A stretch of DNA of 64,000 nucleotides from Porticoccaceae bacterium (GTDB taxonomy: Bacteria > Pseudomonadota > Gammaproteobacteria > Pseudomonadales > Porticoccaceae). The notes under the pieces are model-generated. The model did not search any database and was not told the DNA's origin. It saw only the letters and a program-made list of their open reading frames with translations. Positions 1 to 57,158 of the stretch are shown piece after piece. The translations under genes were made by a program, and so were the position numbers. Position 1 is the first letter of the stretch. Every line of letters begins with the position of its first letter. The stretch covers positions 2,516 to 66,515 of the forward strand of contig JALNZZ010000001.1 of assembly GCA_023229065.1 (NCBI GenBank), written 5' to 3'.

Positions 1-4
1 CGCA

Positions 5-730
5 TCAGCACAGCCCTCCGTTGACGGCGATCACCTGGCGGGTGATGTAGGCGGCTTCGGGGGAGAGCAGAAAGCGCACCAGTGCCGCTACCTCCTCGGG
101 CTTGCCAGCACGGCGCGCCGGAATCATGGCGGCTAACTCATCGGGTACGGCGCCGTCGCTCATGTCAGTCGCGATCAGCCCCGGTGCCACGCAGTTGACG
201 GTGATTTCCCGTTTGGCCAGCTCCAGCGCCAGGGATTTGCTGGCCGCGATAACGCCGGCCTTGGCAGCGCTGTAGTTGGTTTGACCGCGATTGCCGATCA
301 GGCCGGATACCGAGGCCAGGGTGACGATGCGGCCGGGTTGGCGTCGTCGTACCATCGGCATGGTCACCGGGTGCAACACATTGTAGAAGGCATCCAGATT
401 GGTATGGATTACCGAATCCCAGTCCTCGCCAGTAAGGGCGGGAAAGGCCCCATCGCGAATGATACCGGCATTGCAAACCACACCGTAGTAAGCGCCGTGG
501 GCTTCAATGTCCGCTTCCAGCACTTCGCGACAGCGGTCGCGGTCGGCTACGTCGAACTGCAACACTCGGGCTGAGCCGCCCCGGCTCTCAATGGCGCTGC
601 GCACGGCCTCGGCATCGCTCACCTGGCTGCGGCAGTGCAGGACCAATGGGTAACCGGCAGCGGCCAGGGTCAGGGCGATGGCGCGACCGATGCCTCGGCT
701 GGAGCCGGTCACCAGTACAGTGCCGCTCAT
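5..730 (-). CDS. 3-oxoacyl-ACP reductase, SDR family (ApeQ/FabG-like ketoreductase)
   Basis: MSGTVLVTGSSRGIGRAIAL Rossmann motif and YSAAKAG catalytic Y-x3-K. I chose the ATG at 730, which forms an ATGA overlap with the upstream gene stop. The ORF-track N-terminal extension to 823 was rejected. Confidence 0.85.
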   Translation of the reverse strand: MSGTVLVTGSSRGIGRAIALTLAAAGYPLVLHCRSQVSDAEAVRSAIESRGGSARVLQFDVADRDRCREVLEADIEAHGAYYGVVCNAGIIRDGAFPALTGEDWDSVIHTNLDAFYNVLHPVTMPMVRRRQPGRIVTLASVSGLIGNRGQTNYSAAKAGVIAASKSLALELAKREITVNCVAPGLIATDMSDGAVPDELAAMIPARRAGKPEEVAALVRFLLSPEAAYITRQVIAVNGGLC

Positions 731-1188
731 TGCGGGTTCTCCTGCATGAATTCCTCGATATTCTCCGGCATGTAGACGTTGAGGTTGGCGTTGGCGGCAA
801 TATTCGGGCCGCAGATCGAACACTCGAAAACTTGCAGACCGTTAGTCCCTTCAGTAACTGCCTGCACGGATATTGCCAGCCTTGTGCCCAAGGGGAAATA
901 GGCGCAACCGGGCTCGTAGCGTCTGGTGCTCACCAAAAAGCCGATGCGCACCGGGTTGCCGGCGCGGCGGGCGTTGGCGCCAGCATAGGCGGCGATGGCC
1001 TGACCCATGTACTCGAGGCCAACCCAGCTGGGTACGCCGCGATCTTCAGCGAACAGTGACTCGGGAGTGATAGTGACACTGGCGGTCAGGCCGCTGTCGC
1101 GCACTTCGTCGACCTTGTCCAGCAATACCATGGGGGTGTCATGGGGAAGCAGATCGCGAATGGGCGGTGTTGTGCTGGTGGTGCTCAT
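727..1188 (-). CDS. hotdog-fold 3-hydroxyacyl-ACP dehydratase (ApeP-like)
   Basis: About 153 aa starting MSTTSTTPPIRDLLPHDTPMVLLDKV. Size and position between KS and KR match APE-type clusters. ATGA overlaps at both ends. Confidence 0.7.
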   Translation of the reverse strand: MSTTSTTPPIRDLLPHDTPMVLLDKVDEVRDSGLTASVTITPESLFAEDRGVPSWVGLEYMGQAIAAYAGANARRAGNPVRIGFLVSTRRYEPGCAYFPLGTRLAISVQAVTEGTNGLQVFECSICGPNIAANANLNVYMPENIEEFMQENPQ

Positions 1189-2360
1189 GGTGTTTCTCGC
1201 GTCAGGATCAGCGACAAGTTGTTGCCGCCAAAGGCGAAGGAGTTGCTCATGGCTGTCTGTACCGGGTGCTCCAAGCAACTGTGGCCGAGCCCTGTAAGCA
1301 AGGGCATGGCCGGGTCGGGCTGCCCATCCCATTGATGGGGCGGCAGTCTGCCGTCGTCGCGCTGCAGTAGTAGCCAGCACAGTAGCGCTTCAATGGCCCC
1401 CGCTGCGGCCAGAGTATGCCCGGTGAGAGGCTTGGTGGAGCTGCAGGGAGTCGCGCTACCCAGTACCCGGCTTACGGCCAGCGCTTCCACCTGGTCGTTC
1501 TGGGTTGTAGCTGTGCCGTGGAGGTTGAGATAGTCGATTTGCTCCGGTGCCAGATCGGCTCTGGCCAAGGCCTGGCGAATCGCGGCTTCGGCTCCCCTGC
1601 CCTCTGGATGCGGGGAAGAAATATGGTGGGCATCGGAACTCTCCCCCCATCCTGCCAAGCGCACTGCTCCTGGCTCCCGGGTCATCACGAACAGTGCGGC
1701 ACCTTCGCCGATATTGATGCCTCGGCGGTTGATGCTGAAGGGGTTGCAGGGGGTGTCGGCGGTGACCATCAAGGCCGAAAAACCCGCTACCGTCATGCGG
1801 CACAGGCTGTCGACGCCCCCAGCCACCACCGCATCGCACACGCCGAGTTGCAGCAGTCGCGCAGCCGAAACCAGTGCCTTGCCTCCCGAGGTGCAGGCAG
1901 ACGACACCACGGAGCAGGGACCGCCCAAGTCGAGCCAGCGGGCCAGAAAGCGTCCCGGAGCAGAGAATTCCTGGGTGCTGTAGTGGTAATCCGCAGCCAG
2001 TGCAATATCACCAGCGGCGACACTGAGCGCCGCTTCGCCTTCGGCGATACCGGAGGTGCTGGTGCCGATGACCACGCCGATGCGGTCGCGGCCGTAGCGG
2101 GCTTTGAGCTCCTCCACTACCGGCAGCAAGGGTGTCAAGGCCGCTGCCAAGAGACGGTTGTTGCGGCTGTCCTCGCCAGCGATTGTCGCTGGCGGCAGGG
2201 TTGCGTCGACTTTGCCGAGGGGCATGGCGCGCCCAGGCGAGTAAGAGTCGCTAACAGGGAGGGAAGGTGGTGTCGTGGCGAACAGGTTGCGCTCCACTTC
2301 GTCGGTGTTGGTGCCGAGGGCACAGATGACGCCAGCGTGGTTGAGATACACAGCGGTCAC
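1185..2360 (-). CDS. beta-ketoacyl-ACP synthase (ApeO-like KS)
   Basis: 391 aa with active-site SSACTSGGKAL Cys, HGTATTQND and GHTLAAAGAIE His motifs. GTG start in a GTGA overlap with the upstream stop. Confidence 0.9.
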   Translation of the reverse strand: MTAVYLNHAGVICALGTNTDEVERNLFATTPPSLPVSDSYSPGRAMPLGKVDATLPPATIAGEDSRNNRLLAAALTPLLPVVEELKARYGRDRIGVVIGTSTSGIAEGEAALSVAAGDIALAADYHYSTQEFSAPGRFLARWLDLGGPCSVVSSACTSGGKALVSAARLLQLGVCDAVVAGGVDSLCRMTVAGFSALMVTADTPCNPFSINRRGINIGEGAALFVMTREPGAVRLAGWGESSDAHHISSPHPEGRGAEAAIRQALARADLAPEQIDYLNLHGTATTQNDQVEALAVSRVLGSATPCSSTKPLTGHTLAAAGAIEALLCWLLLQRDDGRLPPHQWDGQPDPAMPLLTGLGHSCLEHPVQTAMSNSFAFGGNNLSLILTRETP

Positions 2361-2908
2361 AGAGCAGTCCTCGACAGGCTGTGGACGGTGAGAAGCATAT
2401 TCTGCCCGATATAGTCGATCTCGCGCCCGTTCTCGGTCGCTTCTGCCGTGAGGTAACGCAGGCGCACCAGCTCCTGCCCCCGCCGGCGCAGTACCCGGTG
2501 GTTGTTTTCTTCGCTGACTGTCCAGTCCGGGCCAGCGAACTCCCAGGCTGGCAGGGGTAGATGATGGAGGTAGAGTGCCAGCAGCAGCTGATGGGACAGC
2601 ACAGCGGACCAGCCAGGGGGTGCCTGCAGGGTGTGTGGGGTGCCGCCAGTATGAGACAGAGCCACCAGACGCCGCCCCAGGCCGTCGAACGCTACCAGTG
2701 TCAGCTGACCTGGAGTGAGTGCCACGGCGGCGTCGAGCGTCAGAGTTTTACCGTCGGCGGCAATCTGGACCCGCTCGCGGCTCTGCCAGCAGCAGTCGAG
2801 CTGTTGCGGCGCGGGCAGGGCCAACTGCGCCAGGCGCTGAGGAGCAGTAGTCGCACAGCCGCTGGCAAAGGCGATCAGTACAAGTAGTGCAAGCCTCTTC
2901 AACGGCAC
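2357..2908 (-). CDS. DUF3261-like lipoprotein (ApeN-like)
   Basis: Signal peptide with lipobox LIAFASGC. 183 aa. Conserved position next to the KS in APE clusters. The family assignment is from memory. Confidence 0.6.
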   Translation of the reverse strand: MPLKRLALLVLIAFASGCATTAPQRLAQLALPAPQQLDCCWQSRERVQIAADGKTLTLDAAVALTPGQLTLVAFDGLGRRLVALSHTGGTPHTLQAPPGWSAVLSHQLLLALYLHHLPLPAWEFAGPDWTVSEENNHRVLRRRGQELVRLRYLTAEATENGREIDYIGQNMLLTVHSLSRTAL

Positions 2909-4128
2909 AGTTCCGCGAGAGTGGCGAGGCGCCGCCGGGAGTCACGCACAAAGGGGTTGGCGGTGTCCCAGGCGTACCCGGCCAGGATGGAAGCGATCAT
3001 TGCCCGCACCTGTGGCTGGTGATTGGCAGCGAAGATCACTTTTTGGAAGCTGCCGTCGTACCAGCCGCTGACATAGGTGCGGAAGGTTTCTACACCCAGG
3101 CGCAAGGGCTCGGCATACTCTTGTTCCCAGTCGATGTGCTCGCCGCGCAGTTGACGAGCCACCAGAGGGGTAGCGAGGCTGGCGGATTTCATCGCGATGG
3201 TGACGCCAGAAGAAAACACCGGGTCGAGAAACTCGCCAGCATTCCCCAGCAGGGCGAAGCCGGGGCCCCACAGCGACTTGACCTTGCAGGCATAACCGCC
3301 GATCTGCCGCACCTGGGTATCAAACACAGCGTTGTTGAGCAGTGCAGATAGGTCCGGGCTCTCGGCGAGAGCGCTCTGCAGGACACTGAGCAACTGATCC
3401 TCGGCACCCTCGTCAGTGTAGTAATCCTGGCGTGCTACCACCCCTACCGAGCAGCGACCATCGCTGAAGGGGATAAGCCAGTACCAGACATCATCGAGGT
3501 CGGGGTGGATCACGATCAAAATCTTGTCTCTGTCGTGCTTGGGATCGCTGATATTGTCGGCAATATGGGTGAACACGGCTCTGCGCACGGGGAAGTCGGA
3601 GGGCAGCTCCAGGTCCAGCAGGCGTGGCAACACGCGCCCAAAGCCAGATGCATCAAGCACGAACCCGGCGCGCAGTTGATGGGGCTCGTTGCGGTCGTCA
3701 CGATAGCTCAGTACCGGCTGCCCGTCTTCGTAATGGAAGGCTTCGAGGCGGTGACCGTAGCGTACATCGGCGCCTGAGGCGGCAGCTTCGTTGGCCAGGA
3801 CATGGTCGAAGCGGGCGCGCTGAACCTGGAAGGTAGTACCCGGCCCACTGCTGAACTTGTCGCGGAAGTCAAAGGCGGTGTAGTTGCCGCTGCGCACAAA
3901 AGCGGCGCCATTCTTGTACTGAAAGCCGGCCTGATCGACAGCCTCCCCCATGCCTGCTTCGTGGATGAACTCCATGCATTGGGGCAGCAGGCTTTCACCG
4001 ATGGAGAAGCGGGGAAAGGTGGCCTGCTCAAGCACCACTACTTTTAGGCCTTGTTGGCGCAGCAGAGCCGCAGCAATAGCACCGGAAGGACCGGCGCCGA
4101 TAATGGCAACATCGGTTGTTTCAGTCAT
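2899..4128 (-). CDS. flavin-dependent halogenase-like FAD monooxygenase
   Basis: N-terminal GAGPSGAIAA dinucleotide fold, FPRFSIGESLLPQ motif, and WYWLIP (WxWxIP signature, nt 3469-3486). 409 aa. ATGA overlap with the MMPL gene stop. Confidence 0.8.
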   Translation of the reverse strand: MTETTDVAIIGAGPSGAIAAALLRQQGLKVVVLEQATFPRFSIGESLLPQCMEFIHEAGMGEAVDQAGFQYKNGAAFVRSGNYTAFDFRDKFSSGPGTTFQVQRARFDHVLANEAAASGADVRYGHRLEAFHYEDGQPVLSYRDDRNEPHQLRAGFVLDASGFGRVLPRLLDLELPSDFPVRRAVFTHIADNISDPKHDRDKILIVIHPDLDDVWYWLIPFSDGRCSVGVVARQDYYTDEGAEDQLLSVLQSALAESPDLSALLNNAVFDTQVRQIGGYACKVKSLWGPGFALLGNAGEFLDPVFSSGVTIAMKSASLATPLVARQLRGEHIDWEQEYAEPLRLGVETFRTYVSGWYDGSFQKVIFAANHQPQVRAMIASILAGYAWDTANPFVRDSRRRLATLAELCR

Positions 4129-6440
4129 GGTTGACGTCCTGTAGGCAGGGCCAGGCCCCAGAGATGGAACAACAATGGGGTGACGAGCCAGCTACACAGC
4201 AGTCCGGCAAACACGACGCTGCCGAAATGATGCAGCACCGGTACCTGGCTCAGGGAGAGCAGGCCGAAGGCCAGGATTGAGGTCGCCATCGCCAGGGTGG
4301 CGGCGACCCAGGTATCGCCATTGAGGCCGAGCTCGAGATAAAACACCGCTGTATCCACCGATAGCCCCAGTACCAGTAGCAGGGCGAGAACATGAAAGAG
4401 GGTCACCCCGCCGCTGGCGGATAATGCCAGACTGGCCGCTAACGAAACAAGCACCGAGACGGCCACCACTACTCCGTGGCGGCCAAATAATAGTGGGCAG
4501 GCAAGCGCGAACAGCGCTATGAATATTGTTAGTAGCGCTGTTACCTCGGTGCGCAGCAGCGCTAAAGTGGTAGATACATCGGTGATCAGATCCACCGCGC
4601 TGACACCGGGTAGATCAGCGGCAGCGCTATACAGGCTGGCGGGAATTTCTGTCCCGTGGCGGACCAGCACCAGGCCCTGCTGGTGGTCGCCCAGATGCAG
4701 CGGCGGGAAAAGGGCGGCTACTGCAGCTGGTACCTGATCTGGAGTCAGAGCATCCTCAGACGCCTCGTTGGTGGGGAAGCCGTTGGTCAGGGGGCGCCAC
4801 TCCTGGCAGTCACTGGCGAGCCGTGCGCAGAGACTGGCCAGGGCACCCTCTGGGCCGTAGAGCACGTTTGCCACCAAGGCGCGATCGCGGCGCTGGCGCT
4901 CCAGCGACGGCACCATTTGCACGGTGGCCATCACGGGTGACGGTGAATGTCCCTGGTTCAGTAGATCCACTAATCGCTCCATGCGGCTCAGTACCTGCTG
5001 GCGATCCTCCCCTGCTACGGTCCAGTAACGCTGGCTGTCGATGCCGCCAAGCAGGCCTTGTATCTGGTGCTCATCGGCCAACAGTGCCGCGCTGGAGGTG
5101 TTGAGCAAGCGAATATCGTCGCGCCCGCCCTGACCCGCGACCCAGAGGGCGAGTGCCGGGACGCCTATCACCAAAGCCACTAACCAGGGCCAGCGCCGCG
5201 CTGCCAGGCGTTGATAGACGGCAGCAAAATAGCGAGGGTAAAAGTGTCGCCAGACAGCAAAGGTTGGCGACGCTGGGGCCTGGTAGTTGAGCGATAGCAC
5301 CGCAGTCGCGGCACAGGCACTCAGGAGCCCCGCGACCATGAATACGGCAAACTGGTGTAGTCCAGGGAAAGGCGACCACAGTTGAATCAGATAGGCGGCG
5401 ATACTGGAGCCGGCGCTTAGCAGCACTCCGCGCCGCACCAGGCGCCAGGCGGTGCGAGAGCTTCCCGTACTCTGGTGCTTGATCAAAAAGTGAAAACAAT
5501 AGTCCACCGCCAGACCCAGCAGGGTTGAGCCGAAGGCCAGGGTTACCAGATGAACGCGGTCGAATACCGCCAGGCTTACTGCCAGAGCTGCCACTGTGGC
5601 GCTGACCAGGATGACAGCGATGGCGACTAGAGCCTGCCGGGAGCGAAACACCGCTATTACCAGCAGCAAAATACCCAGCAGCGAGCCACTGCCAATCAGG
5701 GAAATCTCGAAGCGCGCCAGGCGGGTGGCTTCGGCGGCGTGAAATACCAGCCCTGACCGGAGCAAGCGGGCCTGTGGGTCGTGACTGGCAAATGCTGCCA
5801 CCGTGTCGGCCACTGCACTCTGGGCCGTGGCCGTAAAAGGGCTGGACTCCAGTGTGCCGCGCAGCAATAACCAGCTGTAGCCATTGTTGCGCAGACTGGG
5901 AAACCCGCCGCTCATGCCGAAGTGCCCCGTGTTGCCCAGCAGGGATTGCAACCATTTGCCGCCCAGATTGAAGGGGTCTTCTGCCACGCTGTAGAGGCGC
6001 GGAGCGGGTACCGGGCTGTGGAGCTCCCGCAGTAGCTCGTCAGCCAGAGCTGCGGCATCGCCTTTCTGCAGGGCGCTGCGCATCTCGGGAGACAGCAGCT
6101 GGTGGCGGTAGGGAGCGAAAAAATCACTCAGCTCGGTGAGCGGGTCGCCGTGGGGGAGAGCCATTGAAACGCCGGGTTGTTCAGCCAGCTGGTGCTGGAG
6201 CTCAGTGGCCAGGGCGAGTGCCTTATCCGCTTCGGGGTGGGACACCAGGATGACAAACTGTTTGTCGAAACGGTCAGCGACCAGACGGGAGAAGTTCGGG
6301 CCAGTGGCAGTCTGAGGTATCAGCCCCAGAATGTTACTCTCGAAAGCGCCTCCCCCCGCCACTCGCCAGACACAATACAGCGCCGCCAGCAGTAGCAGTG
6401 CGCACCAGGCCTGTAGAGGCCACCGCCGGGCAGCTGCCAT
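4125..6440 (-). CDS. MMPL/RND-superfamily membrane exporter (ApeM-like)
   Basis: 771 aa with two blocks of multiple hydrophobic helices separated by large soluble loops. Sits beside the LolA-like gene, as in APE clusters. Confidence 0.8.
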   Translation of the reverse strand: MAAARRWPLQAWCALLLLAALYCVWRVAGGGAFESNILGLIPQTATGPNFSRLVADRFDKQFVILVSHPEADKALALATELQHQLAEQPGVSMALPHGDPLTELSDFFAPYRHQLLSPEMRSALQKGDAAALADELLRELHSPVPAPRLYSVAEDPFNLGGKWLQSLLGNTGHFGMSGGFPSLRNNGYSWLLLRGTLESSPFTATAQSAVADTVAAFASHDPQARLLRSGLVFHAAEATRLARFEISLIGSGSLLGILLLVIAVFRSRQALVAIAVILVSATVAALAVSLAVFDRVHLVTLAFGSTLLGLAVDYCFHFLIKHQSTGSSRTAWRLVRRGVLLSAGSSIAAYLIQLWSPFPGLHQFAVFMVAGLLSACAATAVLSLNYQAPASPTFAVWRHFYPRYFAAVYQRLAARRWPWLVALVIGVPALALWVAGQGGRDDIRLLNTSSAALLADEHQIQGLLGGIDSQRYWTVAGEDRQQVLSRMERLVDLLNQGHSPSPVMATVQMVPSLERQRRDRALVANVLYGPEGALASLCARLASDCQEWRPLTNGFPTNEASEDALTPDQVPAAVAALFPPLHLGDHQQGLVLVRHGTEIPASLYSAAADLPGVSAVDLITDVSTTLALLRTEVTALLTIFIALFALACPLLFGRHGVVVAVSVLVSLAASLALSASGGVTLFHVLALLLVLGLSVDTAVFYLELGLNGDTWVAATLAMATSILAFGLLSLSQVPVLHHFGSVVFAGLLCSWLVTPLLFHLWGLALPTGRQP

Positions 6441-7042
6441 TACTGGTCCGCGTGGCGAGTGGTGGTCACGCGCAGCAATAGCTCACTGCGGTCGCCGTTA
6501 GTATCGCGTATTTCCACCCGCTCGATGTGGTCACTTCCTTCCAGTAATATGCCTTCCATCTGTTGTGCCAAAGCTGGCAGGCGTGGGGTCAGGCGGAGAG
6601 TCCAGCTGTCGCCGCGGGAGGCGTGGGCGACATCAAAGTATTCTGCAAGGCGGTCGAGGTCGCCTGAGAAAACACCCAGGAAGATACCAGCCACCAGTTC
6701 CGAGGAGGGTACTGGCCGCAGGGTGCCAGTTGCGTCCCCTGCGACGACGCCGTCGGTGGGAGTAATGCGTACTTCGTTGGCGATAGGGTCGGTGGTACGC
6801 CAGACAATGCCTTCACTGCGCCGATAACGAAAGGTACCGGAGGAGTGAAGGGGCACGGCCAGCACGCTGATATGGCGAATCTGCTCGAACTCGCCGTCCA
6901 GGATGTCGATCTGAGCCAGGCGAGCAGCCAGTGACACCAGTGAGTCGTCAGCTTGCTGGTGGTCCTGCGCCCAGGCCGTGCCTCCCGCCAACAGCAGTGT
7001 CACCACCCACAGGGCGACGACGGTCAGGCACCGGTTCTTCAT
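6440..7042 (-). CDS. LolA-like outer-membrane lipoprotein carrier protein (ApeL-like)
   Basis: Start at MKNRCLTVVALWVVTLLLAGGTAWAQ (signal peptide). About 200 aa. ATGA overlap with the thioesterase stop. The longer ORF-track N-terminus was rejected. Confidence 0.7.
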   Translation of the reverse strand: MKNRCLTVVALWVVTLLLAGGTAWAQDHQQADDSLVSLAARLAQIDILDGEFEQIRHISVLAVPLHSSGTFRYRRSEGIVWRTTDPIANEVRITPTDGVVAGDATGTLRPVPSSELVAGIFLGVFSGDLDRLAEYFDVAHASRGDSWTLRLTPRLPALAQQMEGILLEGSDHIERVEIRDTNGDRSELLLRVTTTRHADQ

Positions 7043-7491
7043 GGCAGTAACCCCAACTTGCGGGTTAGCACCGGGGGTGAGGCAAGCTGCATCTCGCCGC
7101 TGTCCATGGCGACAGCTACCTGGATGGTATGCCCCTTGGTGAGTCGCTTGCCGGTGGCGAGATCGGTGATCAAGTAGTCGATGCGGAGCCGGTTTTCCCA
7201 CTCTGCAAGGGTGGCGGTTACCCGAATTTTTTGCTGAAAGCGGGCTGCCCCCACATAGCGAATACGCATGTCGATCACCGGCCAGAAATACCCTGATTCG
7301 CTCATCTGGGAGTAGTTGTAGTCGATGCGGTCGAGCAAGGCGCAGCGCGCCAGTTCGAAATACTTGCTGTAGTGGCCGTGCCAGGCAACCTGGGCAGAGT
7401 CCACATCGTGGAAGGGAATCTCGATGATGACGTCGGCGCTGGGCAAGGGCGCGTTGTCGGAGGAAGGGAGGCTATCAGGCATCTGTATCAT
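7039..7491 (-). CDS. 4HBT/YbgC-type hotdog acyl thioesterase (ApeK-like)
   Basis: 150 aa. The FHDVDSAQVAWHGHYSKYFE motif is typical of 4-hydroxybenzoyl-CoA thioesterase-fold enzymes. Confidence 0.75.
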   Translation of the reverse strand: MIQMPDSLPSSDNAPLPSADVIIEIPFHDVDSAQVAWHGHYSKYFELARCALLDRIDYNYSQMSESGYFWPVIDMRIRYVGAARFQQKIRVTATLAEWENRLRIDYLITDLATGKRLTKGHTIQVAVAMDSGEMQLASPPVLTRKLGLLP

Positions 7492-8446
7492 CTCTGCTTG
7501 TGAGAGGCGGTGGAGAAAGCTTTCTCGCCGCCGATTGCCAAAAGGGAAAGAAGTTGTACCACTGCCAGGGAGCGCTCAGGCAGTGCTGTTCGAGCTGTGT
7601 TACAAAGGCGTCGGCCAGGGCATTGCGTTGCAAGGTGCGCTCTTTACGGGGAACGGTGCCGCCCTGCCAGAGGGCCTTGAAGTGGATATGGTAGCGTCCA
7701 TTGTGCTTGAGGCTATGGATGGTCAAGACCGGCGCTTCCAGAGCTATGGCGAGGGCAAAAGGACCGAGAGGGAAAGGTGCCGGTTCACCGAGAAAGTCGC
7801 GTTCAAGGCTACGACCGTTGCCGATGGCTACCCGGTCGGCGGCGATGGCGATGAATTCACCTGCCCCGATTTTATCGCTCAGGTGCATGGCGGTTCCGAT
7901 GTCGAGATCCGTCACTTGCAGCAGCTCCACTTGCGAGTGACGATTGTGATGTGCCAGTACTTCGTTGAACTTGGCGGCGTTGAGCGTGTGCTGGAGCACT
8001 GTGAGGCGGAGTCTGGGGCGGCTTTCCGACAAGGCCTGGCAGATCTCGAAGTTGCCGAGATGGGAGATCAGGATTACGGCGCCTTGCTTGCGGTCCAGTA
8101 GATTATCGATAAGCTCGCCGCCATGCAGGGTCACCTGATAGCGGGTGATGTCGCCCATCCACACTGCGAGCTTGTCCAGCAGCGCATTGGCAAACTGCCA
8201 CAGATGGTAGATAAAGTGCCAGGGGCGCGGGGCCGGGAAGGTCGGGTCGAAGCGGTGCAAGCGGCGGCGATAGTCGGCAGATGCCAGTCGAGCCTGGCGA
8301 TGAAACAGGGCATAACACAGCACAACTGGGGCAAGGCACAGACGAAAGAGCCACACGCCGCCCAGGCGATACATTGCCACCAGTAGACGTATACCGCGCA
8401 GGGTGGCGGTTTCCGGGCGCTCGGCCCAGTGCGCCGGATCGTTCAA
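7475..8446 (-). CDS. LpxL/HtrB-like (lipid A biosynthesis-type) acyltransferase
   Basis: N-terminal HWAERPETATLRGIRLLV...LCLAPVVLCYALF, then HLGNFE (HX4E-like acyltransferase motif). Proposed TTG start at 8446 in a TTGA overlap with the GT2 stop. The start is uncertain, and the alternative is the ATG of MYRLGG. Confidence 0.65.
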   Translation of the reverse strand: MNDPAHWAERPETATLRGIRLLVAMYRLGGVWLFRLCLAPVVLCYALFHRQARLASADYRRRLHRFDPTFPAPRPWHFIYHLWQFANALLDKLAVWMGDITRYQVTLHGGELIDNLLDRKQGAVILISHLGNFEICQALSESRPRLRLTVLQHTLNAAKFNEVLAHHNRHSQVELLQVTDLDIGTAMHLSDKIGAGEFIAIAADRVAIGNGRSLERDFLGEPAPFPLGPFALAIALEAPVLTIHSLKHNGRYHIHFKALWQGGTVPRKERTLQRNALADAFVTQLEQHCLSAPWQWYNFFPFWQSAARKLSPPPLTSRDDTDA

Positions 8447-9204
8447 CGGGACTGCCCTCCCCGCTGCTGGCGTGTCAGCAGGGCCGGGATGCGCGGCAGC
8501 ATGGCGAAAAATAACCGGGCGTGCATGCGTGAAATAAGAGCGTTGTCGCGCCACAAGCGGAAATGGGATACGCCATTTTCCGGGTAGATCACGCGGGTTT
8601 GGAGTTGCTGCAAAGGGAGCCCGGCCCAGTACCAGCGCACAATGAATTCCACGTCGAAATCCATGCGGTCGCCCACCGGAGCCTGCTCCAGCAAGGTACA
8701 GGACCCGGCCAGGGGGTAGACACGAAAGCCGCACATGCCATCGCGGATTCGCGGCGACAGTGTATTGATCCAGACCCAGATGTGAGTGAGATAGCGGGCG
8801 TAGTAGCGGTGGCGTGGGACACAAGCATCGTAGGCTGGGTAGCCAGCTACCAGGGCATCGGGATGGCGCCGGGCGAGGTCTAGAAAGCGCCCCACATCGC
8901 CGGTGTCGTGCTGACCATCGGCATCGATCTGAAGAGCGTGACTGAAGCCCAGTTGGCGGGCGGTGCGCAGGCCATCCTTTACAGCCGCGCCCTTGCCGCC
9001 ATTGGCAGCACGCCGCACCAGGTGCACTTGGCTCCGAGTGCTGGCGATGGTATCAATGACTTCACGGCAGGGGGAACTGCTGCCGTCATCCACCAGTACC
9101 ACGGGTACGCCGGTGGCGAGCAGCTCGTCTACCGTGCGTGCCAACACCCTTTCATGGTTGTAGACAGGAATCACAGCGCAGGCGTGCAGGGTGTCAGATA
9201 CCAT
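8443..9204 (-). CDS. family 2 glycosyltransferase (ApeJ-like)
   Basis: Starts MVSDTLHACAVIPVYNHERV, with VLVDDGSSSP and QIDADGQHD (DxD) motifs. The long N-terminal ORF extension to 9540 was rejected because it lies inside the upstream gene. Confidence 0.8.
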   Translation of the reverse strand: MVSDTLHACAVIPVYNHERVLARTVDELLATGVPVVLVDDGSSSPCREVIDTIASTRSQVHLVRRAANGGKGAAVKDGLRTARQLGFSHALQIDADGQHDTGDVGRFLDLARRHPDALVAGYPAYDACVPRHRYYARYLTHIWVWINTLSPRIRDGMCGFRVYPLAGSCTLLEQAPVGDRMDFDVEFIVRWYWAGLPLQQLQTRVIYPENGVSHFRLWRDNALISRMHARLFFAMLPRIPALLTRQQRGGQSR

Positions 9205-10894
9205 GGCTTTTCTCGCAACTGAACAGCACTCGCCCGCTGGCGTGGCGACCGCGGGCAGAGCTGTAGCTGAAGTGTAGGCGGGTGCGTTCCGGCTGCCATT
9301 GCAGCTCCAGCGACACCAGGGCACCGGGGTGAATGATGTGCTGGAACTTGATCGCTTCGAGCCCAGTGAAGGTGTCGAGCCCTGTGAAGTGCTGGCGGGC
9401 GTAGTGGATCGCCCAGTGGGTCTGTACCACACCTGGCAGTACGGGGTTGCCTGGAAAATGGCCGTTGAAGTAGAACAGATTGTCGGGAATGTGTAGATGC
9501 AGCCGGCAGTGGGTGCCAGCGACCAGCTCTTCGCTCTCAAGCAGTATGGGAAAGCGGCTCTGGCGTTCGCTTATGAACAGCTCGGTGAGCGTGTCGACAG
9601 TGGTCTTGCCCTGACTGTTGAGCGGCATCCGCGCTACATAGCGCCAGTAACGCGGCAGAGCCACGGGGTCCACCGGGCCGGCAATGTGGTCGCGCAGCAG
9701 ACCGTTGACTGCTTGCCGGCCGCGATCAATCAGTGCTGCATTGCCTTCCGCAGTGAGCCTGATCACCGCACCGAGGCGGCCCTTGCGCTCTGCCAGTGGC
9801 ACTAGCCGGGCCTCCTGCACCCAGGGGTGGCTGGTCAGAGAGCTTTCCAGGGTGGATAGAGCAATCCGCTTGCCTCCGATCTTGGTGATGCGATCGATGC
9901 GCCCGGCGAGAGTGAAAGTCGTGGATGACAGGATCTGACCTGCATCCGCCGTTGTCAGGGGGCGGTCATGGGCAAGGGCTGGCGAGTGAATGCGCAACTG
10001 GTCCGATTGCTCATGAGAGGTCGCGGGGGGGTGATCTACGGTAATGCCGGGCAGGCACTGCCAGATCGCGGAAGGGTGCCGTCGCCAGGCGACAGCACCT
10101 GTTTCTGTACTGCCGTAAATTTCCGTGATCGATGTGCCGAACAGCTCGAGGCAGCGGATTGCATCGTTCTCCGCCAGAGGGGCTCCGGCGCTGAATACCC
10201 GTGAGATGCGGTTGTGAACGCTGTCCGGGTCCAGATTGTCCGGCAGATGTCGTAGGTGCACCGGACTGCATACCAGGGCTAGATGTTGTTGTCGGGCAAG
10301 ACGCTCGAGGGCCAGGGGGTGATGGACGGTGCGGCTGTGGAACAGCGCTCCCCGAGTGAGGGGCCACAGCAGTCCGAACGGCAGGCCGAACATGTGATGG
10401 TGCGACACCATATTGACCACTAGCGTATTCTGCTCTTGGTTGCCCCACAGGTGGTCGATCAGGGCGAGCTCACTGTCCAGTTGCGCGAGGCTTTTGGGCA
10501 CTGCTTGGGGACTGCCGCTGGAGCCCGAAGTAAACAGGACCAGCGCGGTGTCGCCGGGCAGCTCGGCGGGCAGGGCCGCAGGGTCGAAAACGGTAGCACA
10601 GCTGCCGTCCGAGAGCGGAGCCATCAGTGCGGAGGGGAGATCGCGAAAGCCACTGGCAGAAACCACCGCGACTCTAGCGCTGCGCCACGCGGCCCACAGC
10701 CAGGAGAGAAACTCACAGGGCTCGGGCTGGTGGATGGCGACGGGGCCAGGTGGCAATGTCGCGAGGTGATTTTCACGGCACTGTACTCGATGGCGGAACC
10801 AACCCCAGTCGAGGACGCCTTCAGGGCCTGTCGCTAGAGGTTCGGCGTCAGCCGGGTGCTGGCCAGTGATCAAGGTCGCTAGTGGGCTAGCCAT
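9194..10894 (-). CDS. adenylate-forming (AMP-ligase) enzyme fused to a C-terminal FabZ-like hotdog dehydratase (ApeH+ApeI-like)
   Basis: The N-terminal ~440 aa has LVLFTSGSSGSPQAV (AMP-binding P-loop-like) and EIYGSTETG motifs. The C-terminal ~120 aa carries GHFPGNPVLPGVV (FabZ active-site motif, nt 9431-9460). Confidence 0.8.
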   Translation of the reverse strand: MASPLATLITGQHPADAEPLATGPEGVLDWGWFRHRVQCRENHLATLPPGPVAIHQPEPCEFLSWLWAAWRSARVAVVSASGFRDLPSALMAPLSDGSCATVFDPAALPAELPGDTALVLFTSGSSGSPQAVPKSLAQLDSELALIDHLWGNQEQNTLVVNMVSHHHMFGLPFGLLWPLTRGALFHSRTVHHPLALERLARQQHLALVCSPVHLRHLPDNLDPDSVHNRISRVFSAGAPLAENDAIRCLELFGTSITEIYGSTETGAVAWRRHPSAIWQCLPGITVDHPPATSHEQSDQLRIHSPALAHDRPLTTADAGQILSSTTFTLAGRIDRITKIGGKRIALSTLESSLTSHPWVQEARLVPLAERKGRLGAVIRLTAEGNAALIDRGRQAVNGLLRDHIAGPVDPVALPRYWRYVARMPLNSQGKTTVDTLTELFISERQSRFPILLESEELVAGTHCRLHLHIPDNLFYFNGHFPGNPVLPGVVQTHWAIHYARQHFTGLDTFTGLEAIKFQHIIHPGALVSLELQWQPERTRLHFSYSSARGRHASGRVLFSCEKSHGI

Positions 10895-11450
10895 GAGCGC
10901 CTCGTATCCGGCGGCGTACCAGCCACTCCCCTGCCAGCAGGGCACCCATTAACAGATAAGCAATGAAGCCGTTATAGAGTAGCCACCAGCGCTGGTCACC
11001 AAACACTGTTGCCAGCGCAATGGTGCCGTTGAGAGCGAAAAAGAGCGTCCATACCTGGGTTACCCGGCGGGTGTAACGAACGGCTTCTGACGGCAGATCT
11101 GGCTCTCGCAGTCGCGCTACAAGTTCGATGGCAGAGGGCGGGCGAGCCAGGCTGACGGCAAAGACTGCCAGCAGCACACAGTTGACCAGCACCGGATACA
11201 ACAGCAGACCGAAAGATGAGCCAGTGACCAAGGTAATAGCGGTGGTGCCCAGAGCGGCGGCGACCAGCGCCACCAGGCTTGCCTGGAGCTGCCCAGTGGA
11301 ACGAGCGCTAACCAGACGCCAGCCGACAACAAGTACCAGCAGTAGCGCCAGCCAGCGGGGGTCCAGGTAGCGCAAGCCAATGAACACGGCGGCGGGATAG
11401 AGCAGAAGCAGAGCGCTGCTGGCAAGCCGCCCCCTGGCGCTGTCAGCCAT
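10887..11450 (-). CDS. small polytopic membrane protein (ApeG/COG4648-like)
   Basis: About 187 aa and almost entirely hydrophobic helices. Lies between the ACPs and the adenylase as in APE clusters. Start MADSARGRL was chosen. Confidence 0.6.
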   Translation of the reverse strand: MADSARGRLASSALLLLYPAAVFIGLRYLDPRWLALLLVLVVGWRLVSARSTGQLQASLVALVAAALGTTAITLVTGSSFGLLLYPVLVNCVLLAVFAVSLARPPSAIELVARLREPDLPSEAVRYTRRVTQVWTLFFALNGTIALATVFGDQRWWLLYNGFIAYLLMGALLAGEWLVRRRIRGAHG

Positions 11451-11694
11451 CGCGGAGCAGGCCCTCCACCGCAGTGATGATATCGCCCACGGTGCGGACA
11501 TTCTTGAAATCCTCGGGCGCGATCTTGCGGCCAGTATAGTTTTTGAGTTCCACGATCAGGTCGACGGCGTCAATGCTATCGATATCCAGGTCGTCATAGA
11601 GATGGGCGTCTTCGCTGAGACTGGCCGGGTCCAGCTCGAACATCTCGCTCATCAGGCCGGTGACATGCTGGTAGATTTGCTGGCGTGACTTCAT
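11443..11694 (-). CDS. acyl carrier protein
   Basis: 83 aa, acidic, with the phosphopantetheine-attachment motif DLDIDSIDAVDL. Confidence 0.9.
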   Translation of the reverse strand: MKSRQQIYQHVTGLMSEMFELDPASLSEDAHLYDDLDIDSIDAVDLIVELKNYTGRKIAPEDFKNVRTVGDIITAVEGLLRDG

Positions 11695-11966
11695 GTCGGT
11701 GTTCCTCCTCGCTGACTGGCTACCAGCCGGGCGAGATCGACGATGCTGGCGAAATACTGTTTGACATCGTCGGTCTCGGGGTCGAGCTTGATGCCGTAGC
11801 GCTTTTGTAGGGCCACGCCGATTTCCAGCGCGTCGATGGAGTCCAGGCCCAGCCCATCATTGAACAGGGGTGCCTCGTCGTCGATGTCATCGGGGCCGAT
11901 GTCTTCCAAATCGAGAGTTTCGATGATCATGACCTTGAGTTCATTGTGTAGTGTGTCAGTGCCCAT
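11691..11966 (-). CDS. acyl carrier protein
   Basis: 91 aa, acidic, with the GLGLDSIDALEI attachment motif. ATGA overlap with the second ACP. Confidence 0.9.
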   Translation of the reverse strand: MGTDTLHNELKVMIIETLDLEDIGPDDIDDEAPLFNDGLGLDSIDALEIGVALQKRYGIKLDPETDDVKQYFASIVDLARLVASQRGGTPT

Positions 11967-12732
11967 GGCAGTGGCGTTCCTCGGTAAAAAAATGCTCCAG
12001 ACTGTCAGTAAGGTGCCGTGCGCCGAGGGGCGCGGGACAGTCTAGAAAGGGGGTTATAGCGATGTCGTCCCTGACCGAGAAAGTCATTGCAAACGGTCGC
12101 TCGGGAATATGATACCACCGGTGCTGCTTGCTCAAGGTGGGGGGTGAGCAATGGATGATTACCGGTGTTACCGGCACTTGGCAGCGCACGGCAATGTTGG
12201 CTGCACCGCGCTGCAAGAGAATGGGCGCCCCCTCGCGAGTGCGGGTGCCCTCGGGAAAGATCACCAGCACATCGCCAGCGGCAAGGGAGCTGGCTGCCTG
12301 CTCCAGTAGAGTGCTGCCGCGGTCGTTGGTGATATACCCGGCCAGGGCGATGAAACCGCGCATGGCCGGGTTGTTCAGCAAGCGACTCTTGACGATACAG
12401 TTGGCGTTGGGCAAGAGCGCTACCAGCAGTACCACATCGATCAGGGTGGGATGGTTGGCCAGCACCAATAACCCTTGCCGGTTGAGCTTTTCTATACCGT
12501 TCACCTGCCAGGTCATCACGCCAAGTCCCTGCATCAGGTGGGCAAAGCCACGAAACAGCCAATGTACCAAGCGCCGTGAGCGCCGCTGACGGTCAGCGGC
12601 GGTACCCGGCAGCAGGTAGAGGACGGGTGTTGCCACGAGAGGGACCAGCACCCCGCCCACACCGAACACCACAAAGCAGAAGGCGGTGGCAACCAGGCGC
12701 CAGAGATAGTTCAGGTGCTTCCACGCAGTCAT
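11956..12732 (-). CDS. PlsC-type lysophospholipid/1-acyl-glycerol-3-phosphate acyltransferase (ApeD-like)
   Basis: Starts MTAWKHLNYLWRL with an N-terminal TM segment. Motifs LANHPTLIDV (HX4D) and IFPEGTRT. The ORF-track extension to 12987 was rejected because it lies inside the CLF gene. Confidence 0.8.
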   Translation of the reverse strand: MTAWKHLNYLWRLVATAFCFVVFGVGGVLVPLVATPVLYLLPGTAADRQRRSRRLVHWLFRGFAHLMQGLGVMTWQVNGIEKLNRQGLLVLANHPTLIDVVLLVALLPNANCIVKSRLLNNPAMRGFIALAGYITNDRGSTLLEQAASSLAAGDVLVIFPEGTRTREGAPILLQRGAANIAVRCQVPVTPVIIHCSPPTLSKQHRWYHIPERPFAMTFSVRDDIAITPFLDCPAPLGARHLTDSLEHFFTEERHCHGH

Positions 12733-12733
12733 G

Positions 12734-13438
12734 TCAGTGTTTGGCGATGGTCCAGTGCCCACCGTTATGGGAGGCGCTGAAGGTTTGTTGTGAAGAAGCG
12801 AGAAACTCGATAAAGCGCAGCGCCTGGGGCAGGCTCTCCTTGGGCGCTGTGCAGTCTGCGGCCACTTGGTCGCCGGCGCGGTCGAGGGTGACGGCCAGTC
12901 CAGTGCCGGGACCAACCACGAAACTGGCGGCAAACGGTGCCGCCGGCCAGGTGCAATCGCGCTGGTAGAGCGCCGGCACGGGAGCATCGGCGATCACGCA
13001 GATGACTTGTTCATTGGTTTCTCTCACCAGCCCCGCGGCTTCCAGCAGCACAGGCACCAGACATTCGTCCTGGGCCGCGATACTGGTGATGTTGGCGGTA
13101 AGGCCCCTGTGTATCGATACGATACCGGTGATGGCGTTGTGTACTGACAAGCTGAAGTGCATGGGAGATACCGGTTCACCGCGCGCTAGCTCGCTAAGTA
13201 CACTGAGTGTCCGCTCCAGGTCGCCGTGACGCGAACCGTAGACCACAGGGATGTCAGCGGTATGACGCAGCAGCTCTGCTGCAGTTGCGCGCCCGAGCGT
13301 GTTGAGACGCCGGCGCAACATGGCTGGGATGGCGGACACATCGGGAGTGTCGCTGACGTGCAGCACGGAGCCAGGCACCAGTGGGTGCGCGGGGGTGGTC
13401 CAGCCGGACCAGTTGGAAATAGCAAGCTCAACAGCCAT
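12734..13438 (-). CDS. KS-related protein lacking the active-site Cys (chain-length-factor-like, ApeC-like)
   Basis: 234 aa starting MAVELAISNWSGWTT. First gene of the operon. No ACxSG motif is visible. The assignment comes from position and from remembered beta-ketoacyl synthase N-terminal-like proteins of APE clusters. Confidence 0.55.
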   Translation of the reverse strand: MAVELAISNWSGWTTPAHPLVPGSVLHVSDTPDVSAIPAMLRRRLNTLGRATAAELLRHTADIPVVYGSRHGDLERTLSVLSELARGEPVSPMHFSLSVHNAITGIVSIHRGLTANITSIAAQDECLVPVLLEAAGLVRETNEQVICVIADAPVPALYQRDCTWPAAPFAASFVVGPGTGLAVTLDRAGDQVAADCTAPKESLPQALRFIEFLASSQQTFSASHNGGHWTIAKH

Positions 13439-13823
13439 CCCGGGGCTGGCACCTTCATTGGAAGTGAGGAGGTTGATGCTCAGATTGCAGAGACGGCAAG
13501 GGCCGTTTGCTATCTCTCATCTGACAAGCGGAGTGAAGTCTAGCAGATGCCTGAAGAGGGGCAAGGTTCGCTTTATCGCCCCAGAGTTTGGTTGCAGCAG
13601 ATCTGGCCGAGCGAGTATCGCCGCTCCATCCCGCAATGGACGCCACAGAGTTGTCTGAGACATTGCTTCAATGTCGGATGGAGGACCAGAACGCAGTACT
13701 TGGACAGAGCGCAAAGGATGGATAAACTGCCGGCAACTGCGGCTGTGTCAAGGACCGTCACAGGCCCCTTGGTCATTAAGGGGAGCACAGCTGCTGTTAC
13801 CTAACCGATAGAAGGAGTTTACC

Positions 13824-14261
13824 GTGCATCTCAAGCTTGCCCTCGTTTTTGCCCTCGTGGCCTTGTTCAGCCTGCCCGGTCATGCCCGGGATACCAAGCA
13901 CCTGCTCTCCATTGATGAGGCGATGAGCTCTGCCGACTTTCAGGAAAGGCTCGACCCGAATGTCCGTCTCTATTTTGGTGATACCCCTCACCCACAGCCT
14001 CTCCAGCGGCGCGGTGAATACGTTTCCAACAAGAAGACCAATGCTGTCGGCAAGTCCGATCGCCGCGCCTGTGAGTGGGTGCTGCTGTCCGCCTTGTTGA
14101 GCCTGCAGGAGAGAGCTGTGGCCGAAGGTGGAAACGCAGTGGTCAATATCCGCAGCTACTACAAGAAAAACACCTTCTCCAGCACCACTGAGTACGAATG
14201 TCATACCGGCGCGGTGATTGCCGGGGTGGCCCTCAAGGGGGAGGTGGTCAAGCTGCCCTAG
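13824..14261 (+). CDS. conserved secreted protein of unknown function
   Basis: GTG start 7 nt after a GAAGGAG Shine-Dalgarno. Signal peptide MHLKLALVFALVALFSLPGHA. From memory, homologues are often mislabelled excinuclease ATPase subunit. Confidence 0.6.
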   Translation: MHLKLALVFALVALFSLPGHARDTKHLLSIDEAMSSADFQERLDPNVRLYFGDTPHPQPLQRRGEYVSNKKTNAVGKSDRRACEWVLLSALLSLQERAVAEGGNAVVNIRSYYKKNTFSSTTEYECHTGAVIAGVALKGEVVKLP

Positions 14262-14311
14262 CACTGATCGATTCAGCAGGGCGTGCCTTATCCTTCCGCT
14301 GATACTGTCCT

Positions 14312-14974: not shown

Positions 14975-15053
14975 AACTCCGTGAGGCAAGCAGGCGGAGT
15001 TTCCCCTGAGCGGAGAACCTACCGGCTGATGCTATCTGCTAGAATCCGCCCCC

Positions 15054-31144: not shown

Positions 31145-31449
31145 GAAGAAAAAGCTAGCTCCGTAGTGCCAGATTGCAAAGAACCAAAGTGCATATAAGA
31201 GGCTCTTCAAGATTGAGTCTGTCTCGCCAAGGCCCGTCTGGCCTACAAACAAGCAGTTTTTGGGTGCTTTATTATCCCGAGGAAAAAAGCCTGTTTATTT
31301 GCGCTGGATCATGGTTTTTCTACCGTGACTGTCGCGGAATTGTTCTGCTATACTCGGGCGACTGTCCGGGTAGACAGCGCTTTTTCTTGCTACGGCACTT
31401 CTGCACGGAGACGAGAACTCTACTAAATTAATAATGGAGAAAACGGGCG

Positions 31450-53392: not shown

Positions 53393-53405
53393 ATTCTGGC
53401 TCCGG

Positions 53406-56852: not shown

Positions 56853-57158
56853 TCACACGGTGCGAGAGCTTAGCCAAGCACCATTCCATCATGATCTGCT
56901 GCGCGAGTTATTATAAGGCAGTACCGCTTGAAGTCGCCGCCAGAGACGCTCCAGTGCCAGCCCGCTCAAGGCAAGGAATCACGTTTTTGGCGTGGACCTT
57001 CCGTTGGTGACTCATATCCAGAGCAGGACTAACAGGCGTTGCCCTCCTCCGGTTTCTACCCCCTTCGGGCAGAGGCCCCTTTATTTGCAGGCGCCAGACC
57101 AGTAAAATTGGCAACTTTTCCTTCCAATCCCCTTCCGCTCAGTATCAGAGGCTCTGCC

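Follow-up and report, generated by a model that had tools for sequence, protein, structure and literature searches.

We analyzed a stretch of 64,000 nucleotides from an uncultured member of the Porticoccaceae (GenBank assembly GCA_023229065.1, contig JALNZZ010000001.1, positions 2,516 to 66,515; the whole stretch is hereafter called the window). Its left end, from position 13438 down to 5, carries an unbroken run of 16 minus-strand open reading frames (ORFs), each joined to the next by a start/stop overlap or a 1-nt gap. Judging by sequence comparison, we assign this run, with a probability of approximately 0.88, to an operon for the biosynthesis and export of an aryl-polyene (APE) lipid (APEL), of the type encoded by the ape clusters of Escherichia coli and Xenorhabdus, and its product is probably a halogenated aryl-polyene lipid. 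An earlier reading of the bare sequence (the original prediction) had proposed an APE cluster, and this is upheld by four agreeing lines of evidence, i.e., collinearity with E. coli apeC–apeR, matches to curated models, matches to solved structures, and continuation of the operon on a near-identical contig.

Assignment to the Aryl-Polyene Family

When complete E. coli genomes (5426 in total) were searched at the DNA level with the region spanning the ketoreductase (KR) and second ketosynthase (KS2) genes, 825 proved to have a homologue of it, and one annotated ape locus from this search served as the reference for collinearity. It begins with genes for a lipoprotein, a methyltransferase, a chain-length factor (CLF), a lysophospholipid acyltransferase, two carrier proteins, and a COG4648 protein; continues with an AMP-binding protein, a FabZ-like dehydratase, a family 2 glycosyltransferase (GT2), a thioesterase, a LolA-like protein, an MMPL transporter, and a DUF3261 protein; and ends with a ketosynthase (KS), a hotdog protein, FabG2, another KS, and acpT. 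This content equals the published apeA–apeR gene list (PMC8253772). The products of E. coli apeC–apeR were matched in the same order in the Porticoccaceae operon at 28–59% identity; the ApeN-type protein and a halogenase-like protein had no match at that locus.

The core enzymes resemble APE paralogues rather than their counterparts in primary fatty-acid synthesis. The ApeO-type KS passes model NF006618 (492 bits, cutoff 407), whereas on the fabF model (cutoff 494) it scores 196 and the other KS 359. Both acyl carrier proteins (ACPs) pass paralogue models, NF006617 at 92 bits (cutoff 70) and NF003757 at 121 (cutoff 65), while on the AcpP model TIGR00517 (cutoff 70) they reach 23 and 44, the latter value being that of the ApeF-type ACP. 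Grouping of the KS and ACPs with the primary fatty-acid synthase (FAS), which the original prediction had named as grounds for abandoning the APE assignment, was thus not observed, and the APE-family match that it called for was obtained.

Structural comparisons point the same way. In the PDB ranking of the ApeO-type KS, X. doucetiae ApeO (6QSP_A) scores 361 bits (1e-106) and the best FabF 167 bits. The nearest solved structures are chains A and B of 6QSP, i.e., the ApeO:ApeC pair, and chains A and B of 6QSR, i.e., the ApeI:ApeP pair; the identities of 6QSP and of 7F27/7F28 are stated in PMC8358021. Both ketosynthases have the catalytic Cys-His-His residues, which the CLF lacks, and both ACPs carry the serine of the DSI motif.

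The operon shares with the ape clusters of E. coli CFT073 and Xenorhabdus doucetiae the first position of the CLF gene, a KS gene near the end, two ACPs, the ApeG/L/M/N export set, overlapping reading frames, an associated AcpT-type phosphopantetheinyl transferase (PPTase), and the lack of a starter-unit gene within the cluster. Several differences from E. coli were observed. ApeH and ApeI are separate proteins in E. coli and fused here (566 aa); E. coli ApeJ is a single protein of 558 aa, corresponding here to separate GT2 and LpxL-like genes; and a halogenase-like gene, absent from the E. coli cluster, is inserted here between apeM and apeN. E. coli ape also encodes ApeA and ApeB, homologues of which were found neither in the window nor in its sequenced left flank; among all fetched loci only that of Haliea has an ApeB, 48% identical to the E. 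coli protein.

Operon Structure and Its Continuation beyond the Window

The junctions were derived from a list of every candidate start codon, with one start picked per gene, which yields 15 junctions. Read from the first gene, the CLF and PlsC-type acyltransferase genes are separated by 1 nt (between 12734 and 12732); the latter overlaps the first ACP gene by 11 nt; the two ACP genes share an ATGA; the second ACP gene overlaps the ApeG-like gene by 8 nt; and the fused ligase-dehydratase gene overlaps the ApeG-like gene by 8 nt and the GT2 gene by 11 nt. The GT2 and LpxL-like genes meet at TTGA, and the LpxL-like and thioesterase genes overlap by 8 or 17 nt. Further on, the thioesterase/LolA-like junction is ATGA, LolA-like/ApeM-like TAATG, and ApeM-like/halogenase again ATGA. 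The halogenase and DUF3261 genes overlap by 10 nt if the GTG at 2908 is used, or form a second TTGA with the TTG at 2902. DUF3261/KS is GTGA, and both KS/dehydratase (DH) and DH/KR are ATGA. The totals, i.e., five ATGA, one each of GTGA, TTGA, and TAATG, one 1-nt gap, and six overlaps of 8–17 nt, reproduce the earlier tally, and the coordinates bear out its description of the 16 genes as one coupled operon. Between position 9204, where the GT2 gene starts, and position 5, where the KR gene stops, the gene calls of three near-identical metagenome contigs have the same boundaries; these contigs end short of the five junctions to the right of the GT2 start.

The operon does not end at the window edge. 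The KR stop codon (7–5) overlaps the ATG of another minus-strand gene (5–3) in the sequence TGATG, so that the operon continues to the left; only the first 5 nt of this gene (positions 1–5) fall within the window. The KR protein is present on 12 public contigs, of which one (ENA ERZ27247346 k141_725626, designated L001) is 99.9% identical to window positions 1–10730 and reaches 6.5 kb further left. There the gene is complete (10726–11952) and encodes an initiating ketosynthase of 408 aa of the ApeR type, just as the original prediction had expected off the left edge. Against model NF006587, which has a cutoff of 470, the protein reaches 704 bits; it shares 59% identity with E. coli ApeR and carries Cys164-His301-His335, and its second-best solved relative is Acinetobacter ApeR (PDB 7F27, 7e-150).

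The stop codon of the apeR-type gene is in turn overlapped by 8 nt by the GTG start of a gene for a PrmA-like class I methyltransferase of 231 aa (L001 11945–12640). Past it lie convergent genes for a PLD-family protein, YdjM, and a hydrolase, which indicates that the operon ends at the methyltransferase. The count of 16 genes thus holds for the coupled run within the window, and the full unit comprises 17 ape genes (apeC–apeR) plus the coupled methyltransferase. The base composition of the cluster (60–63% G+C) lies within the range seen elsewhere in the window (54–64%) and hence gives no clear sign of recent transfer.

The role of the methyltransferase is less certain. It was considered as an equivalent of ApeB and rejected, as it is PrmA-like and has no homology to E. 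coli ApeB. Homologues at 64–70% identity are common in Marinobacter, one example being situated amid housekeeping genes. In another organism from the same metagenome sample (L011/L012), a 70%-identical methyltransferase is encoded 5 kb downstream of an ApeR-like KS. The gene following apeR differs among relatives: an ApeB homologue in Haliea (15685–16773, plus strand of locus L008), a PPTase in Cupriavidus, and the PrmA-like methyltransferase here; in another Porticoccaceae metagenome-assembled genome (MAG; locus L007) the slot is taken by an ORF (15316–16809, plus strand) that is at most 497 aa long and has no Pfam family. This slot is therefore variable. A function of the methyltransferase in methylating the head group, or in other tailoring, is a tentative suggestion that we hold to be somewhat doubtful, and it may be a co-transcribed bystander. 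As a separate observation, the ApeR-like KS gene of L011 and L012 is followed, at 1313–4953, by genes for a TonB-receptor-like protein (855 aa, weak Plug match) and a MauG-type di-haem peroxidase.

Genes of the Operon

All domain calls of the original prediction are supported, 14 of the 16 by Pfam and the remaining two (the MMPL protein and the small membrane protein) by similarity to E. coli ApeM and ApeG. All genes described in this section lie on the minus strand, and identities refer to the E. coli proteins.

The polyketide synthase (PKS) core begins with the first gene of the operon (12734–13438), which encodes a half-size CLF of the ApeC type (234 aa; PF13723 Ketoacyl-synt_2, 3.6e-52; 28% identity). 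It lacks the Cys/His/His catalytic motifs and matches PDB 6QSP_B at 7e-21. The elongating ketosynthase of the ApeO type (1185–2360, 391 aa, 46% identity) matches the N- and C-terminal KS domains of Pfam and has the catalytic triad Cys156-His281-His315. The two ACPs are of the ApeE type (11691–11966, 91 aa, DSI serine Ser43) and the ApeF type (11443–11694, 83 aa, Ser40), each 52% identical to its counterpart and each recognised by Pfam as a PP-binding protein. The 3-ketoacyl-ACP reductase of the ApeQ type (5–730, 241 aa; Pfam adh_short/KR; 59% identity) passes the FabG2 model TIGR01831 (380 bits, cutoff 339). The ApeP-type hotdog dehydratase (727–1188, 153 aa; PF22817 ApeP-like; 28% identity) has a sole PDB match, 6QSR_B. 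No enoyl reductase was found among the 18 proteins of the unit with Pfam and NCBIfam models.

The second dehydratase forms the C-terminal part of a fused protein of 566 aa (9194–10894), in which a predicted aryl-acid adenylating and ACP-loading domain of the ApeH type (AMP-binding, PF00501) precedes an ApeI-like domain (PF22818). The fusion is 33% identical to the syntenic ApeH and 40% identical to ApeI, and its residues 459–548 match PDB 6QSR_A. One high-scoring segment pair covers both the ligase and the dehydratase part in each of the related loci from the other Porticoccaceae MAG, Haliea, and Cupriavidus; hence the fusion is not an assembly artefact. The ligase domain had no curated NCBIfam model above cutoff.

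Four genes encode proteins predicted to act in lipid assembly. The ApeD-type lysophospholipid acyltransferase of the PlsC family (11956–12732, 258 aa; PF01553) is 48% identical to its counterpart, and the ApeK-type thioesterase of the 4HBT/YbgC family (7039–7482, 147 aa, alternative ATG at 7491; PF13279 4HBT_2) 54%. The GT2 glycosyltransferase (8443–9204, 253 aa; PF00535) corresponds to the N-terminal half of ApeJ (48% identity), and the LpxL/HtrB-family acyltransferase (7475–8446, 323 aa; PF03279 Lip_A_acyltrans) to the C-terminal half (35%). The top NCBIfam match of the GT2 protein is the polyprenyl-phospho-GalNAc synthase PpgS (2.6e-14, below cutoff).

The predicted export set consists of four proteins. 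The ApeG-type small integral membrane protein (10887–11450, 187 aa) has several hydrophobic segments and, over residues 82–182, shares 59% identity with E. coli ApeG, a protein assigned to the COG4648 family; it had no NCBIfam match. The ApeM-type RND/MMPL-like exporter (4125–6440, 771 aa) is 28% identical to E. coli ApeM across residues 33–523 (E 3e-27), gives weak matches to HpnN/HAE3 RND models, and has the hydropathy of RND/MMPL proteins, i.e., two transmembrane bundles with a large loop before each. Pfam MMPL/RND models seem to miss the ApeM-type transporter family. The LolA-like periplasmic carrier of the ApeL type (6440–7042, 200 aa; PF19574 LolA_3; 28% identity) has a signal-like N-terminus and matches the flexirubin LolA2 model at 4e-10, below cutoff. 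Finally, the LolB-like DUF3261 protein (2357–2902, 181 aa; PF11659; alternative GTG start at 2908) is situated as ApeN is, yet no similarity to E. coli ApeN was detectable at E 1e-3. Read from the TTG start at 2902, it has a clean lipoprotein signal, MKRLALLVLIAFASGC, with the lipobox ...FASGC.

Halogenase-Like Flavoprotein

The gene inserted between apeM and apeN (2899–4128, minus strand) encodes a flavin-dependent halogenase-like protein of 409 aa (PF04820 Trp_halogenase/FAD). The motifs characteristic of flavin-dependent halogenases, GxGxxG, a conserved lysine, WxWxIP, and FxxPxxSxG (PMC8407142), are all present, as GAGPSG at residue 11, Lys72 (aligned with the KxGA lysine of Mpy16), WYWLIP at 215, and FLDPVFSSG at 300; for WxWxIP, a role in blocking monooxygenation has been suggested. 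The protein matches the CmlS halogenase model at 8.5e-40, far below the model cutoff.

The closest structure, 3NIX (3e-105), comes from structural genomics and bears no deposited name beyond "Flavoprotein/dehydrogenase"; we take it to originate from the Bacteroidetes species Cytophaga hutchinsonii. The ten PDB matches that follow are all deposited as halogenases or, in the case of ChlB4, known to be one, and include Mpy16, ChlB4, Bmp2, CndH, PltA, and CmlS. All six act, or are presumed to act, on substrates tethered to carrier proteins (in part after PMC8407142), which fits action of the Porticoccaceae enzyme on an ACP-bound aryl starter or polyene. With these variant B halogenases the protein shares fold-level similarity (E 1e-31 to 1e-38) and all motifs. 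It differs in being far closer to 3NIX and in its predicted substrate, hydroxybenzoyl- or aryl-polyenoyl-ACP as opposed to pyrrolyl- or tyrosyl-carrier proteins.

The family is large, with more than 8000 homologues at E <= 1e-30. The 120 best homologues listed are all at least 62% identical, and the named ones come from Cellvibrionales, Marinobacter, and the betaproteobacterium Chitinolyticbacter. No characterized member of the family was met among the homologues and structures examined. On the strength of its motifs and structural relatives, we consider halogenation by this flavoprotein reasonably probable.

Starter Unit

No gene of the aromatic ammonia-lyase, chorismatase, or chorismate lyase (UbiC) families was found among the ORFs scanned across 13.8–63.5 kb, a set from which overlapping ORFs judged spurious (on the other strand or in another frame) and the truncated ORF 63510–63998 were left out; nor does a chorismatase of the XanB2 type or a tyrosine ammonia-lyase (TAL) figure among the Pfam labels of the 6.5-kb left flank. 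The original prediction had reported that the window contains no starter-unit gene, which stands, and had concluded that the aryl starter cannot be inferred. This conclusion goes too far, since the E. coli and Xenorhabdus clusters likewise lack such a gene. For E. coli, 4-hydroxybenzoate (4-HBA) from the ubiquinone enzyme UbiC is predicted to be activated by ApeH, and Xenorhabdus ApeH adenylates 4-HBA and loads it onto an ACP in vitro (PMC8253772). By analogy, a hydroxybenzoate starter is the default inference for the Porticoccaceae operon.

Alternative Interpretations

Several observations weigh against the reading of this operon as one for a halogenated aryl-polyene lipid. A consensus scan of positions 13300–15100 found no promoter-like site on the operon strand; the ApeM-type exporter and the ApeG-type protein had no Pfam match even at E 0.1; the top NCBIfam match of the ligase domain is a 4-coumarate-CoA ligase model (TIGR02372, 112 bits), far below its cutoff; and 4-HBA, 3-hydroxybenzoate (3-HBA), and 4-coumarate are all candidates for the starter acid. 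With respect to halogenation, no flavin reductase is encoded within the cluster, close homologues of the flavoprotein are mostly named "NAD(P)/FAD-dependent oxidoreductase" at NCBI, and an Azoarcus cluster has an annotated halogenase, but a text search of its paper found no mention of a halogenated product. The last two points would suit the same ape operon with the flavoprotein acting as a hydroxylase or reductase on the ring or chain and yielding a non-halogenated aryl-polyene lipid. So would the annotation of other homologues as "flavin-dependent dehydrogenase" or even "menaquinone reductase," the good scores of the protein on geranylgeranyl reductase family and QhpG monooxygenase models, and the noncommittal label of 3NIX. 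As all four halogenase motifs are present, including the one suggested to block monooxygenation, and halogenases fill the next ten places after 3NIX, we regard this alternative as unlikely, though one to be reckoned with.

Readings that place the operon outside the E. coli type fare worse. In a strict xanthomonadin-type cluster, XanB2 would provide a 3-HBA starter for a brominated, O-methylated aryl octaene ester. The original prediction had likened the cluster both to apeC–apeQ of E. coli and Xenorhabdus, which is confirmed, and to the Xanthomonas pigment (pig) cluster, which is not. The pig cluster and its relatives in Lysobacter and Azoarcus do share with the operon a type II PKS for an aryl polyene, an AMP-ligase, a glycosyltransferase, an acyltransferase, a LolA-like protein, and an exporter. 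A halogenase-like gene occurs in Xanthomonas clusters too (PMC3691225), and a methyltransferase follows the last KS gene here. These clusters, however, encode a XanB2 chorismatase, have their KS and CLF genes side by side, and possess only one ACP (PMC3691225, PMC3949708, PMC8253772), and none of these three features was found here: no chorismatase appeared in the scanned window ORFs or the left-flank Pfam labels, the KS gene (1185–2360) and the CLF gene (12734–13438) are 10 kb apart rather than adjacent as ORF16-ORF17 are (PMC3691225), and there are two ACPs as against one in xanthomonadin clusters (PMC8253772). The gene order is moreover collinear with E. coli apeC–apeR, and the methyltransferase family is found in housekeeping contexts in Marinobacter. 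The halogenase is the only feature here recalling xanthomonadin, and this reading is improbable. A flexirubin-type cluster, with a tyrosine-derived 4-coumarate starter and an aryl polyene esterified to a dialkylresorcinol, is suggested by weak matches to the LolA2 and FlxB models, by the 4-coumarate-CoA ligase model as the top curated match of the ligase domain, and by the presumed Cytophaga origin of 3NIX. All these matches are below curated cutoffs (FlxB 272 as against 340, while FabG2 passes), neither the window ORFs that were scanned nor the left-flank Pfam labels include a TAL, and DarA and DarB were not recognised, the sole direct test being the DarB model, on which KS2 scores 23 bits (cutoff 550). 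Given also the gammaproteobacterial host and the gene order collinear with E. coli ape, a flexirubin product is very improbable. The least credible reading is that of a second FAS or an envelope-lipid remodelling operon without a pigment, its KS, KR, DH, and ACP being paralogues from primary metabolism. The core enzymes do all belong to FAS II superfamilies, and the cluster contains PlsC- and LpxL-type acyltransferases and Lol-like proteins. It conflicts with the scores below cutoff on the FabF and AcpP models and above cutoff on the APE paralogue models, with the half-size CLF, the ApeI/ApeP dehydratases, and the aryl-acid ligase, which are hallmarks of APE clusters, and with the lack of an encoded enoyl reductase.

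Proposed Pathway

Under the preferred assignment to an ape-type operon, a pathway can be proposed. Gene content, gene order, and family assignments come from the present analysis, whereas the chemistry is carried over from the Xenorhabdus work and an E. coli deletion study, whose pathway logic we follow (PMC8253772; bioRxiv 10.1101/2020.12.19.423268). For Xenorhabdus, in vitro reconstitution covered the core PKS steps, and lipid assembly was postulated from deletion mutants.

An AcpT-like PPTase would prime both ACPs, and the ApeH domain would adenylate a hydroxybenzoate, most likely 4-HBA from a UbiC encoded elsewhere in the genome, and load it onto the ApeE-type ACP. The ApeR-type KS is expected to perform the first condensation with malonyl-ACP, after which the ApeO:ApeC heterodimer of KS and CLF would elongate the chain. 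In each unit the ApeQ reductase and the ApeI and ApeP dehydratases would leave a trans double bond, and the lack of an enoyl reductase implies that the resulting polyene would be conjugated. Chlorination or bromination of the aryl head group, while this is tethered to the ACP, is the probable role of the halogenase-like enzyme.

The ApeF-type ACP may bear a further acyl chain, likewise conjugated. The thioesterase, the PlsC-type acyltransferase (ApeD), the GT2 glycosyltransferase, and the LpxL-type acyltransferase could then join the polyene to a glycerophospholipid-sugar anchor; the Xenorhabdus lipid has a glycerol-phosphate-GalNAc backbone. ApeG, the RND-like ApeM, the LolA-like ApeL, and the lipoprotein ApeN would carry the finished lipid to the outer membrane, where aryl-polyene pigments give protection from oxidative and light stress.

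Upstream Region and Phosphopantetheinyl Transferase

The operon is preceded by a divergent intergenic region of 385 bp (13439–13823), presumed to contain its promoter. The consensus scan for promoters and terminators mentioned above yielded one weak sigma-70-like site, on the plus strand, and no terminator.

A PPTase of the Sfp/AcpT type is encoded on the plus strand at 14312–14974 (HetI model 6e-18, AcpT model 3e-17, both below cutoffs). The original prediction, correct in its inventory of the operon genes, had overlooked it. The protein is 36% identical to E. coli AcpT, the enzyme that was shown in E. coli O157 to activate the homologues of ApeE and ApeF (PMC8253772). In E. coli (acpT) and Cupriavidus the PPTase gene directly follows apeR, the slot taken here by the PrmA-like methyltransferase, whereas the Porticoccaceae gene is upstream and divergent; the tie between PPTases and ape clusters thus recurs while the position varies. 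We count this PPTase in the ape system as the likely activator of both ACPs.

Between the intergenic region and the PPTase gene, and divergent from the operon, lies an ORF for a secreted protein of 145 aa with a signal-like N-terminus (13824–14261, plus strand) and no Pfam or NCBIfam family. An ORF 79% identical to it has the same position and orientation in the other Porticoccaceae MAG. It was considered as an ApeA analogue and rejected, having no similarity to E. coli ApeA and no family; whether it is part of the ape system is uncertain.

Other Genes of the Window

The ORFs scanned across 13.8–63.5 kb are housekeeping genes. They include uvrD, a TRAP binding protein gene, trkH/trkA, rsmB, fmt, def, dprA, tsaC, hemF, and aroE, as well as a cytochrome oxidase (cox) operon, znuABC/zur, polA, phosphoketolase and acetate kinase genes, and a hybrid sensor kinase gene. 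Although aroE belongs to the shikimate pathway, it is a gene of primary metabolism, and a UbiA-family gene is read as that of heme O synthase because it lies inside the cox operon. Scans for Rfam families and tRNA genes across the entire window gave no match.

Some of these genes deserve mention in their own right. A minus-strand gene (48924–50930), flanked by dsbA-like and phosphoketolase genes, encodes a protein of 668 aa that matches PF10136 ("Site-specific recombinase") end to end (8.8e-221) and has a weak formate/nitrite-transporter-like stretch. At 51005–54551 (minus strand), the phosphoketolase gene (XFP, 812 aa) adjoins that of acetate kinase (381 aa), with third-position G+C of 0.76 and 0.82, respectively. 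Four ORFs of 207–412 aa, at 30509–31252 (minus), 36848–37471 (plus), 41117–41917 (plus), and 57039–58277 (plus), had no Pfam family at E 1e-5; the third of these is overlapped by a competing ORF on the minus strand, situated between znuB-like and zur-like genes, and the true znuC is probably this competing ORF.

Distribution and Implications

The same 17-gene order, including the halogenase gene and the ApeH-ApeI fusion, was found in the other Porticoccaceae MAG (L007), in Haliea sp. E1-2-M8 (L008), and in Cupriavidus sp. 2SB (L009), with halogenase identities of 82, 74, and 60%, respectively. These clusters, known from genes alone, differ from the operon described here in the gene after apeR. 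The Porticoccaceae are assigned to the Cellvibrionales within the Gammaproteobacteria. Gamma- and betaproteobacteria thus share the variant of the E. coli-type architecture that bears a halogenase gene.

Aryl-polyene clusters are the best-known family of biosynthetic gene clusters of Gram-negative bacteria, and the operon is an ordinary member of this family, with an E. coli-type architecture and a halogenase add-on. Beyond annotation the finding carries little weight. It adds a correctly delimited, previously undescribed ape operon from an uncultured lineage of Porticoccaceae, and offers modest leads for natural-product chemists in the halogenase-like flavoprotein, the slot behind apeR with its varying content, and the lipid anchor. 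We know of no class of halogenated aryl-polyene products outside the Xanthomonas-type and flexirubin-type pigments. It is conceivable, at somewhat less than even odds in our estimate, that the flavoprotein family is one of true carrier-protein-dependent halogenases and that environmental ape-type clusters make chlorinated or brominated aryl-polyene lipids of the outer membrane. If so, hydroxybenzoyl- or aryl-polyenoyl-ACP would be a new class of halogenase substrate.

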